Shown piece after piece: positions 7,443 to 22,605 of a DNA stretch of 64,000 bases. Under the pieces are notes generated by a model, which worked only from the letters and a program-made list of their open reading frames with translations, had not been told where the DNA came from and did not search any database. A program made the position numbers and the translations under genes. Source of the DNA: an uncultured Actinomycetes bacterium (GTDB lineage: Bacteria; Actinomycetota; Acidimicrobiia; IMCC26256; PALSA-610). Numbering within the stretch: the first letter of the stretch is position 1; each line of letters begins with the position of its first letter. The DNA is taken from NCBI GenBank assembly GCA_963708105.1, contig OY970186.1, positions 462,659 to 526,658 of the forward strand. The letters run 5' to 3'.

Positions 7443-8225
7443 TTACTCGAGTGGGAGCGGCTTCAACAACCCGTTGTCAATGAGTACCTGGAAGTGCAGA
7501 GCGACGCTCGCCGCGAGCGTTCGATCGGTGGTCAGGAGCCCGATCTCGATGTTGCGATCGAACGCGGCTTCGGTCAGATTCGCGGAAGTGACAAGCAGAG
7601 ACGACTCGTCGATGACGACCGTCTTCGCGTGTAATACGCCGTCCGGTCCGTCGAGCTCGAGCGATCGAGGGTCGTAGAAGACGTGAGGGCGTCGGTGGCC
7701 CGGCCACGCCTTGCCCCAGAAAGTCTCGGCGAATGTCCGGACGAGCTGAGCAATTGCAGTTCGGTCGCCGCGCTTTCGCTGGATGTTCAGCGCCAGCCGT
7801 ACGTCGACCTCGGGGTGAGCATCCATGTGATCCGCTAAGACCCCGAATGCCTTGCGGCCGTCGAAGTAGGCAAACGAGCTAATCAATATCGACCGCGTGG
7901 CACTGCGGAAGAGTTCGTCAAAGACCGCACGCGTATCACGGGCGTAAAGCCCGGCAACCTCGGATCCCGACCACACCAAGTCGACCTGCGGCGCTTTGGA
8001 CTCGACGGCCGCAATCGACCGGAGCCAGCGCGCGACCGTTCGCGTTGGCACGCCCTCGTCGGAAAGTTCGAGCAGAGCTGTGCGAACCGCATCGCATCCG
8101 TCGATTGGACCAAGCGCGGAGAGAAGGGACACTTCTCCAAACGGCGGGCCAACGACTCCCGTCTCAAGAGCTGACGCAAGCCGCTCGCGTAGGTGCGGTG
8201 GAAGTTCGAGCAAGTGGTCCATCAC
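7443..8225 (-). CDS. drmC: DISARM DrmC, a phospholipase-D/Nuc-like nuclease with one HKD motif.
   Basis: HKD motif 'LHAKTVVIDESSLLVTSANLTEAAF' (His199/Lys201). Intact 260-aa ORF. Its start overlaps the drmB stop (GTGATG at 8220-8225). Confidence 0.85.
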   Translation of the reverse strand: MMDHLLELPPHLRERLASALETGVVGPPFGEVSLLSALGPIDGCDAVRTALLELSDEGVPTRTVARWLRSIAAVESKAPQVDLVWSGSEVAGLYARDTRAVFDELFRSATRSILISSFAYFDGRKAFGVLADHMDAHPEVDVRLALNIQRKRGDRTAIAQLVRTFAETFWGKAWPGHRRPHVFYDPRSLELDGPDGVLHAKTVVIDESSLLVTSANLTEAAFDRNIEIGLLTTDRTLAASVALHFQVLIDNGLLKPLPLE

Positions 8226-10012
8226 GCGTTCTCAAAGAACGCCGCGTTCGGCTGCCCCACGATCTGGACGACAAGCCCGCGATCCAAATAGTCGTTGCGC
8301 ATTTCACATGACGGTTCGGCAACGAGAGCACATCCGTGGCAAGCCGCTCCGTGGAGCCGGCGCGCTTCGAGATCTTCACCGGGTAGATGCTGCGCGCAGA
8401 TCGGGTCATTCGAGCAGAGCTCACCAGCACGAAGAGCCTGGGCGAGGTGCTCCTCAATGTGGCGGGCCTGTTGCACCAGCCCGCCAAGCGTGCCGTCGGC
8501 GTCCGAGCTTCCGGTGTACAGCAGGATTCCGTAGCGGCGGCCCTGTACGTCGGCATAGATTCGCTCTCGAATCGAACTCGCCGGGTATCCACATCGCATC
8601 GCCAACGACTGAATCAGGAGGTGCGACAACGTGTGCAATAGCACATAGGGTCCGCCCGGGAACGGCCGTTGGCTCTTGCGATCTTCGATCCAGCGGCGGT
8701 GTCCCGCTTCAAGCTGAGTCAGACGGTTACGAACGGAATCAAGAGCGAGCCAGGCATCGACGGCGTCGGCACGCAACCCGACGAAGATGCCTTCGCCACG
8801 GTTCTCAACCGCCGGAAACCAGGTTGGATCGATCGCGATGTCGGCCCGCTCGACATCGGAGTCGTAGTCGCCGTTGATGTCGGGAGTAACCGCTTCGAAG
8901 CGCGTAAACCCGACGAGCGCGACCACCTCGCGCAGCCGATGCAGCTGAATCACGGTGTCGATGGGCTTCGAACGTTCCGATCGTCTCCACGCATGGTCGG
9001 GCAGACGGCGAGCGTGAAAGTCGGGGTTGAGCGGAACATCGTCACCGAAACCCTCGGGCGCCGCGAGCAGCGCATCGAGCTCGACAAACTTGACCGGCTT
9101 GTCAACGGCGGGTCCGCGTTTCACCACCTGAATCGCCTCGAACACGTCGTCATCGGCGAACGCGGCGAGTCGTTCCATCACATCGGGTTTACGCTTGAAG
9201 ATCGGAAGTTCAGTGACGCTTTGCACGATCTGGAGTTCGCTCCAGAGTTCGCGCACCGCAGCTTCGATTGCGCTGCCCTTCTCCGGGATCGACAGAACGC
9301 TCACTCCCTGCGAGAAATACGCGTTCGACGCTGTACGAATGAGCAGTCGGCTCGGCTGATTGCATTCCTCAGAGGTGTTACGCCCTAACCATGGGCGGCG
9401 CCCGTGACAGCCACCGAGTGGGTTTGTCTCGAGCAGGGTCGCTTCGTAGAGACCCCGCGACTTCTTGCACTCGCATCGAACGACAAGGTCAGCAAGGTCA
9501 CCACTCGTGCCGCGTTCGTCGAGCCACAGCTGACGGCGACACGGATCCTCGGGTCCATGCACAAATCGGTACCAGTCGAGGTCATCGACATGACCTCGTG
9601 GACAGGCGCGCACGAAGCGAGTCGCGACGACTCTGAGCTTGTCGAATTTGTCTTGGTGGTCGAGCGCTCTGCGGTTGACAAGCCTTCGAGACCGCTCGCG
9701 CGTCTGGCTCGACTCGGTTTCTTGCACCACGAACCATTCGGGAAAGCGCCACGCCGTTATCCCTCGTATCGGCTGGCCGGGGTCGTTCGATGCTGCCGGC
9801 GGCGCGAAGAGTCGAGGTGCGACTACACCGGTGAGCACCCTGAGTTTGGCCGCGAGACGCGGCTCTTCTATTTCTTCTAGGAACTTCGTCGCCGGCCAGG
9901 ACTCCAGCCCTCCCACGATTGCTGAATGACTTGGGAGATCAATAAGTGCTCCAGGTCCGTACACGGTGAGGATCTGGCCCCGTCGGATTTGTCCGTGAGC
10001 TCGTTTGCTCAT
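8222..10012 (-). CDS. drmB: DISARM DrmB, DUF1998 (MrfA-type Zn-binding) protein.
   Basis: 'LLHTLSHLLIQSLAMRCGYPASSIRERIY' and the C-terminal Cys cluster 'LHGAACHGCALVAEPSCEMRNDYLDR' are typical of DUF1998. An extra Cys/His cluster reads 'CPRGHVDDLDW...RCECKKS'. ATGA overlap with drmA. Confidence 0.85.
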   Translation of the reverse strand: MSKRAHGQIRRGQILTVYGPGALIDLPSHSAIVGGLESWPATKFLEEIEEPRLAAKLRVLTGVVAPRLFAPPAASNDPGQPIRGITAWRFPEWFVVQETESSQTRERSRRLVNRRALDHQDKFDKLRVVATRFVRACPRGHVDDLDWYRFVHGPEDPCRRQLWLDERGTSGDLADLVVRCECKKSRGLYEATLLETNPLGGCHGRRPWLGRNTSEECNQPSRLLIRTASNAYFSQGVSVLSIPEKGSAIEAAVRELWSELQIVQSVTELPIFKRKPDVMERLAAFADDDVFEAIQVVKRGPAVDKPVKFVELDALLAAPEGFGDDVPLNPDFHARRLPDHAWRRSERSKPIDTVIQLHRLREVVALVGFTRFEAVTPDINGDYDSDVERADIAIDPTWFPAVENRGEGIFVGLRADAVDAWLALDSVRNRLTQLEAGHRRWIEDRKSQRPFPGGPYVLLHTLSHLLIQSLAMRCGYPASSIRERIYADVQGRRYGILLYTGSSDADGTLGGLVQQARHIEEHLAQALRAGELCSNDPICAQHLPGEDLEARRLHGAACHGCALVAEPSCEMRNDYLDRGLVVQIVGQPNAAFFENA

Positions 10013-22200: not shown

Positions 22201-22605
22201 CGTCACACAGTTCCACCGGAGGGTGTGCAGAAACGCGGAGAACTGGTCGGGATCATCGAAGCCTTGCGAGCCGAGACCGCCCCAGGCCTCGTCCCGGAAG
22301 ATTCGACGGTCGATTTCGAAATCCCAGTAGACGTCGATGGTCATTCCCTGCGCGTCGTCGTCGGCGCAAGCCAGGTGGACGAGTACTGATTGACCGGTTA
22401 GTTCGGGATCCGCCACCTCTTCCACAAACCATCGGCGCGACCGAACCTGGACTAGGTCACCCACCTGTGGCGGGCTCTCCGGAAGCATCGACGGCACGCG
22501 CACATTCGAGTGATGTCCGGTTGTGCCCTGAGTATCTGCCGTCACTAAACCACCGTTATTTCGGATCTGATTTCCATTTTCACGACGCTCCGATCCAGCG
22601 GACAC
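19206..22605 (-). CDS. drmD: DISARM DrmD, an SNF2-family helicase. One apparent frameshift near the 3' end. The start codon is uncertain (GTG 22605 or ATG 22488).
   Basis: 'FIADDTGLGKTIEAGLIAREL' (motif I), 'LLILDEAHHAAPS' (motif II), 'FLSATPHNGHSNSF' (motif III) and '[41 protein letters not shown]' (motifs V/VI). The C-terminal coiled-coil part continues in ORF 19206..19628 and ends 'IEPIGVVYLWPETN'. Confidence 0.8.

Follow-up and report, generated by a model that had tools for sequence, protein, structure and literature searches.

The window considered here, a stretch of 64,000 nucleotides from an uncultured Actinomycetes bacterium (assembly GCA_963708105.1, contig OY970186.1, positions 462,659 to 526,658), contains a genomic island of 16.7 kb, in which a predicted class 1 DISARM defence operon is found together with a GmrSD-like gene embedded in that operon and a Phd/VapC-type pair at the island edge. 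We read this as a horizontally acquired defence island in an Acidimicrobiia-like genome, and the two frame breaks that interrupt its drmD and drmMI genes as errors of the assembly; the probability that we give to this reading as a whole is roughly 0.6.

According to the open reading frame (ORF) list, positions 7443 to 22605 are filled by six co-directional genes on the minus strand, as an earlier, sequence-only reading of this DNA had described, and their order is drmD-drmMI-[GmrSD]-drmA-drmB-drmC. They are listed below in the direction of reading, with the profile matches from which they take their names.

19206 to 22605, minus strand: drmD, SNF2 helicase, about 1130 aa if repaired, start at GTG 22605 or ATG 22488 (PADLOC DrmD, 1.1e-284)
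15248 to 19202, minus strand: drmMI, MmeI/PglX-like N6-adenine methyltransferase, about 1315 aa if repaired (PADLOC DrmMI, E=0)
13395 to 15248, minus strand: GmrSD-like type IV restriction gene, DUF262 plus DUF1524, 617 aa (GmrSD_N, 5.3e-35; GmrSD_C, 2.9e-9)
10009 to 13398, minus strand: drmA, YprA-family SF2 helicase, 1129 aa (PADLOC DrmA, 8.4e-274; Helicase_C, PF00271)
8222 to 10012, minus strand: drmB, DUF1998/MZB partner of DrmA, 596 aa (PADLOC DrmB, 5.6e-81; PF09369, 2.5e-9)
7443 to 8222, minus strand: drmC, single-HKD PLD-family nuclease, 259 aa from ATG 8222, with GTG 8225 possible (PADLOC DrmC, 1.1e-83; PLDc_2, 2.4e-12)

Class 1 DISARM is defined by drmD and drmMI placed ahead of drmABC (10.1101/2021.12.28.474362), and by content and order the locus is assigned to this class. 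The gene identities of the sequence-only reading are correct: PADLOC and Pfam profiles agree, the genes stand in the class 1 order, and all the motifs that had been named were found. DrmD matches SNF2-rel_dom and Helicase_C and has the motifs GLGKT and DEAH. DrmMI matches Eco57I, MmeI_Mtase, MmeI_TRD and N6_Mtase, and along with DPAMGSG it carries the expected NPPF methyltransferase motif (VGNPPFGG). The 1129-aa protein, which had been called a helicase, matches both Helicase_C and PADLOC DrmA, has the motifs GGGKT and DELH, and aligns with Serratia DrmA (PDB 7s9v_A) at 2.4e-176, and the 596-aa protein is a DUF1998 protein by PF09369 as well as by PADLOC DrmB and aligns over residues 3-594 with Serratia DrmB (PDB 7s9v_B) at 1.8e-93. 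DrmC, which the source contig has on record as a protein of 259 aa, shows the PLD domain PF13091 and, as claimed, one HKD motif, HAKTVVID, of the form HxK(x)4D.

Some of these proteins belong to families that are related across several defence systems, and one may ask whether the set is instead ARMADA, Druantia, Dpd, BREX or a type IIG/ISP restriction-modification (R-M) system, given that DrmD also matches BrxHI/BrxHII and DpdE, and DrmMI also matches type IIG and PglX. We regard such an assignment as very improbable. The DISARM profiles are ahead by 100-900 bits for every gene, the matches to the solved DrmA and DrmB are direct, and neither BREX nor Dnd nor Ssp competes in the profile search. 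In ARMADA, Druantia and stand-alone YprA the OB-CON-DUF1998 module is fused to the helicase polypeptide (10.1101/2025.09.15.676423), whereas here DUF1998 occurs only in the separate 596-aa protein and the 1129-aa helicase has no PF09369 match; because DUF1998 has a gene of its own, DISARM can be separated from all three. The readings as ARMADA, Druantia, Dpd and BREX were rejected. None of the six proteins matches PglZ or BrxC, and DrmMI scores 5e-9 against PglX and E=0 against the DrmMI profile. No Dpd biosynthesis gene is present among the six operon ORFs either, the flanks being partly annotated.

The genes are tightly joined, and the four stop/start overlaps that had been reported are all present as written. 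The drmMI/GmrSD junction is TGATG (15246-15250), the GmrSD/drmA junction is GTGA (13395-13398) and the drmA/drmB junction is ATGA (10009-10012), and in GTGATG (8220-8225) the drmB stop TGA occupies 8224-8222, with drmC starting at either GTG 8225 or ATG 8222. Stop/start overlaps are frequent in operons and unremarkable in themselves. From these overlaps alone a single transcript with translational coupling may reasonably be inferred, starting from the region upstream of drmD:

22606 to 22819, no strand assigned: intergenic region from drmD to a divergent host amidase gene, presumed promoter region by position only

Scanned for promoters and terminators, the region yielded no more than shuffled sequence would, and the same scan found no sigma-70-like consensus in 22606-22819.

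The bounds of the island and its horizontal origin are seen directly in a relative with an Acidimicrobiia-like genome that lacks it, the contig L086 (ENA ERZ25039458 contig_14528). Positions 1-5991 and 22835-24602 of the window align to adjoining parts of this contig, which is syntenic on both sides, with 88-90% DNA identity and an SDR that is 98% identical. Between the stop of the RecQ-like gene and the start of the amidase gene L086 has 42 nt (14338-14379), where the window has 16.7 kb, and it is because of this empty site that we set the bounds at 6071 and 22819. The island was horizontally acquired and its gain is recent. Its GC content is 0.60-0.64, versus 0.66-0.74 in the flanks. Its ends show no tRNA, Rfam family, integrase, flanking direct or inverted repeat, or target duplication. 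All the named homologues of the flanking SDR are from Acidimicrobiia, and the actinobacterial host of the sequence-only reading is therefore plausible. The island and the gene pair at its edge are as follows.

6071 to 22819, no strand assigned: genomic island, 16.7 kb (empty syntenic site in L086; GC drop)
6113 to 6367, plus strand: Phd/YefM-like antitoxin gene at the island edge, with the PIN gene directly after it (PF02604, 2.8e-4, below the Pfam cut-off)
6387 to 6770, plus strand: VapC-type PIN toxin gene with an uncertain start codon (PF01850, 2.7e-12, over residues 62-180 of the ORF 6204-6770)

The Phd-like/PIN pair (6113-6770) is convergent with drmC, and a 670-nt spacer lies between it and the operon.

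The gene between drmMI and drmA belongs, by its profile matches, to the GmrSD-like enzymes. Among PADLOC families HEC-06 scores best (2.3e-41), ahead of Orf5, SspE and mREase_IV, and every one of these is GmrSD-like; the protein's PDB matches include DUF262 and SspE chains. The DGQQR motif lies at residue 91, and residues 493-498, EIEHIW, form an E-H nuclease motif; the DGQQR and E-H nuclease residues are essential in HEC-06, and embedding in DISARM has also been published (10.1101/2024.01.29.577857). The sequence-only reading was right about the DUF262 and DUF1524 domains of this gene and about its position within the operon, and only its inclusion in DISARM has to be given up, as the gene is predicted to be a separate, embedded type IV restriction cassette.

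We place it outside the DISARM ground plan because of what is found at the same junction in related loci. Among L001-L080 there are 52 DrmA-related loci in which both drmMI and drmA are visible: in 23 of them drmMI lies less than 200 nt from drmA, and in the other 29 the two are separated by 0.9-9.6 kb of other cargo. The sampled cargo is defence-related and includes HEC-01A/B (with full-length HEC-01A-type ORFs in eight loci), HEC-03, PDC-S28, a Dsr2-like SIR2 protein, DarG, a retron-type reverse transcriptase-protease and a distant GmrSD-like gene, as well as IetA, beside a separate ORF read by eye as a subtilase-like protease, and GajA, beside a separate ORF read by eye as a UvrD-type helicase. 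Most related DISARM loci lack a GmrSD-like gene at this position. The junction between drmMI and drmA is thus a recurrent docking site for defence cassettes, and the layout in the window, with the same strand, overlapping junctions and a junction content that varies among related loci, follows the published pattern of embedded defence. Further cargo ORFs were read by eye as NACHT/KAP-type NTPases.

The clade to which the window's GmrSD-like protein belongs is very widespread and unusually conserved, with more than 100 clusters (P0002-P0120) at 72-77% identity, and its members occur in other settings. In a Pelomicrobium contig (L082, 10001-11854) the gene is found within a type I R-M operon of the order HsdM-AbiEi-AbiEii-GmrSD-HsdS-...-HsdR, where it overlaps each neighbour by 4 nt, and a further locus (L085, 5295-7148) has it alone in a defence island. 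The few clade matches that carry a source name come from Gemmatimonadaceae, Betaproteobacteria, Firmicutes, Acidobacteria and Pelomicrobium.

Two other contigs share the layout of the window. L081 (JGI metagenome 3300086361), which is cut within drmMI, has drmMI-GmrSD-drmA-drmB-drmC with all junctions overlapping, and the identity to the window is 88% for GmrSD, 86% for DrmA, 89% for DrmB and 83% for DrmC. L084 (ENA ERZ25039548) has all six genes, with a GmrSD that is 74% identical to that of the window; it also has an integrase, a Phd gene beside the operon and an insertion sequence (IS) element, and is heavily frameshifted. The recognition region of DrmMI differs more, being only 42-60% identical between these sister loci and the window (60% for the C-terminal region in L081, window 15248-15650 versus L081 20-412), and such fast divergence would be consistent with specificity switching. 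A related observation is that in three other loci (L008, L021 and L074) a break, truncation or interruption of DrmMI falls at one and the same point, approximately residue 990 of the repaired protein, or residue about 956-963 of the post-frameshift query, which was taken as near the boundary between methylase and recognition domain; this suggests that specificity may be swapped in modular fashion.

These comparisons also bear on the view that the GmrSD-like protein is a working part of DISARM, for example the DNA-cleaving effector that DISARM, with its dispensable DrmC, otherwise lacks. Stop/start overlaps join the gene to its neighbours on both sides, the layout recurs in L084, and the protein has moved away from its L081 counterpart about as far as DrmA, DrmB and DrmC have from theirs, the C-terminus of DrmMI being at only 60%. 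We nonetheless consider this unlikely, since most close relatives of DrmA have no GmrSD and carry unrelated cargo at the same junction, members of the clade are also found within a type I R-M operon and, standing by themselves, in a defence island, and HEC-06 defends alone (10.1101/2024.01.29.577857). Slightly more doubtful still is the fuller form of this idea, in which the enzyme was recruited as a subunit of DISARM and its DNA-cutting effector, linked to DrmMI and DrmA by translational coupling and evolving jointly with DrmABC; were it true, a hybrid system would sense both missing methylation and hypermodification through one complex. A separate embedded cassette is the reading that we retain.

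The operon had been called complete, and in this respect the sequence-only reading does not hold, as both drmD and drmMI, in the assembled sequence, change frame partway and are not single ORFs. The mechanical ORFs, 19480-22605 for drmD and 15248-19387 for drmMI, leave 92 nt between them, and the ends of their products look out of frame. In a three-frame translation, a third frame between about 19640 and 19105 reads first the conserved DrmD C-terminus, ...LVYLWPETN, and then the conserved DrmMI N-terminus, MAKVDPHILAHLEWLG, which matches DrmMI homologues but lies in another frame than the rest of drmMI. The gap of 3 nt that had been reported between the two genes does exist (TGA 19208-19206, GTC, ATG 19202-19200), but it is visible only in this third frame. 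Two indels account for the change of frame:

19605 to 19640, minus strand: frame-breaking indel in drmD, like one extra base, possibly in GAAATT (from homologue spacing)
19105 to 19112, minus strand: frame-breaking indel in drmMI, coding strand CTCGCGGGCC (from homologue alignment)

In drmD, frame 0 reads ...LLEDALG and the next frame ...MAIQQRLLE, and with one base removed the 11-residue spacing of the homologues is restored, the break being about 140 codons ahead of the stop. The drmMI gene is split about 30 codons past its ATG, where homologues read SAPAL-VRA-GAILD and the window has 4 nt versus the 6 needed, which resembles a loss of 2 nt. Over 30 related loci encode DrmD as one ORF of 1103-1158 aa ending in LVYLWP(E/D)TN, and have the DrmMI N-terminus in frame with the rest. 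A protein search spanning the junction, for a near-identical intact drmD end and drmMI start, returned nothing above 77% identity.

Whether these breaks are errors or mutations can be weighed against the indels elsewhere in the contig. In the flanks (1-6070 and 22820-38650) at least 20 frameshifts occur in about 16 kb, in genes that are intact in L086 or L087: three in the RecQ-like helicase, two in the GH4 glycosidase, three in the amidase, at least three in GH30, at least two in KAS, at least three in the MFS transporter and at least two in each of two PAS/GGDEF genes. They were exposed by a GC-phase Viterbi path, as the chopped flank genes defeated calling based on GC3, the GC content at third codon positions. 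Protein identity of the fragments is 95-99% for the RecQ-like, amidase, GH4 and first MFS fragments and 50-80% elsewhere. Comparison with L086 shows 108 single-base insertions over 19.9 kb of the window, and comparison with the short-read contig L087 shows 20 insertions to 3 deletions, so that a strong bias towards single-base insertions is seen against both a long-read and a short-read relative. Of the 108 inserted bases only 26 extend a run, and no sequence motif was found around the inserted bases. This pattern in the flanks looks like consensus error, and the drmD lesion is of the same type.

Accordingly, for the two breaks in the operon we lean to assembly error, and yet several facts weigh against this. 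The two genes that they hit are precisely those specific to class 1, and no more than 540 nt separate the breaks, at the drmD/drmMI boundary; the drmMI break looks like a 2-nt loss and not like the typical 1-nt insertion; and the island is approximately 10-20 times cleaner than the flanks, its operon having two frameshifts in 15.2 kb and only two single-base insertions in 8.2 kb versus L081. Homopolymers were rejected as the cause of the clean island, as runs of G or C of at least three occur at 21 per kb in the island versus 27 per kb in the flanks; one idea is that higher or purer read coverage of the strain-specific island might explain the contrast.

The same facts are those that would favour a genuine and very recent inactivation of the class 1 DISARM, in which the frameshifts truncate DrmD by about 140 residues and DrmMI after about 30, leaving DrmABC and GmrSD but neither the methylase nor the SNF2 protein of class 1. 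Elsewhere the island has no assembly-type indels, and in the Serratia class 1 DISARM the loss of the methylases is tolerated without autoimmunity (10.1101/2021.12.28.474362). On the other side, the same contig carries dozens of artefact-like single-base insertions, and past the breaks there are no stops, with full conservation and motifs over about 1280 codons in drmMI and 143 in drmD. Because the frames are open and conserved past both breaks, any inactivation would have to be very recent. We hold inactivation to be a serious alternative, somewhat short of an even chance, and continue with the breaks as assembly errors. In either case, "complete operon" calls made from raw sequence need a frame check in assemblies that are rich in indels.

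A scheme for the action of the operon can be proposed from the mechanism of characterised DISARM relatives (10.1101/2021.12.28.474362; PMC9142583). DrmMI would mark the host DNA with N6-methyladenine (m6A), its MmeI-like recognition domain determining the non-palindromic motif. DrmA-DrmB would load on the single-stranded 5' ends of incoming DNA once an autoinhibitory (trigger) loop is displaced, with an ATPase that would be less active on methylated DNA, and DrmD (SNF2) and DrmC (PLD) would assist as accessories; DrmC was dispensable in both DISARM systems tested (10.1101/2021.12.28.474362; PMC9142583). The GmrSD-like enzyme would then act as an independent second layer, cutting hypermodified phage DNA that escapes discrimination based on methylation.

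DrmA has an acidic low-complexity stretch, PDRRGDDADDDDMEGEVPASGGLAEESNDD, at residues about 57-100 (window 13100-13230). Its end roughly coincides with the start of the Serratia DrmA alignment (window residue 85, Serratia residue 222), and it lies roughly at the place of the Serratia trigger loop (residues 176-232), and it may be an equivalent autoinhibitory loop.

Two features beside the island deserve a brief description. In the product of the adjoining plus-strand gene at 4021-6070, which is intact in L086 with 622 aa, a RecQ-like helicase is fused to a winged-helix region and a C-terminal, ComF-like phosphoribosyltransferase. Farther along, between the amidase and GH30 genes, 24603-25471 is a second small strain-specific segment, which measures 869 nt here and only 241 nt in L086. 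Among its short ORFs is one whose N-terminus is PIN-like (LLVDTAFVYAAL); Pfam gave no significant match, and the segment could be another toxin-antitoxin insertion.

The combination described here is a new instance of known things, and it leaves the knowledge of DISARM unchanged. What it adds is a well-bounded example of class 1 DISARM from Acidimicrobiia, with an empty site in a relative, and it offers a natural test case for whether embedded type IV enzymes are mere riders or partners of methylation-based systems.

Among the known systems, the class 1 DISARM of Serratia sp. SCBI (structures 7S9V/7S9W) has the same five families with drmD and drmMI ahead of drmABC, and its DrmMI likewise combines an adenine methylase of the NPPF kind with an MmeI-like recognition domain. 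The window differs from it in having no drmMII cytosine methylase and in a DrmA that is approximately 200 residues shorter at the N-terminus, the alignment starting at Serratia residue 222 and leaving the trigger-loop region unaligned. It also differs in the GmrSD-like gene between drmMI and drmA, in the frame breaks of drmD and drmMI as assembled, and in its high-GC, Acidimicrobiia-like host. HEC-06 (Payne et al. 2024 preprint) resembles the GmrSD-like protein of the window in being a single DUF262 plus DUF1524 polypeptide with the DGQQR and E-H motifs, nested in the same orientation within a methylase-based system; the match is strongest over the N-terminal domain, and the host system is Hma, whereas that of the window is class 1 DISARM. 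BrxU, from the BREX island of plasmid pEFER, is a type IV enzyme of the GmrSD family as well, and it too is embedded in a defence operon based on methylation, although the host system is another one and the similarity is distant, no BrxU chain being among the PDB matches at E<0.01. BrxU complements BREX, in that the host system targets unmodified DNA and BrxU modified DNA (Picton et al. 2021), and by analogy this pairing would serve as the functional precedent for an embedded GmrSD.

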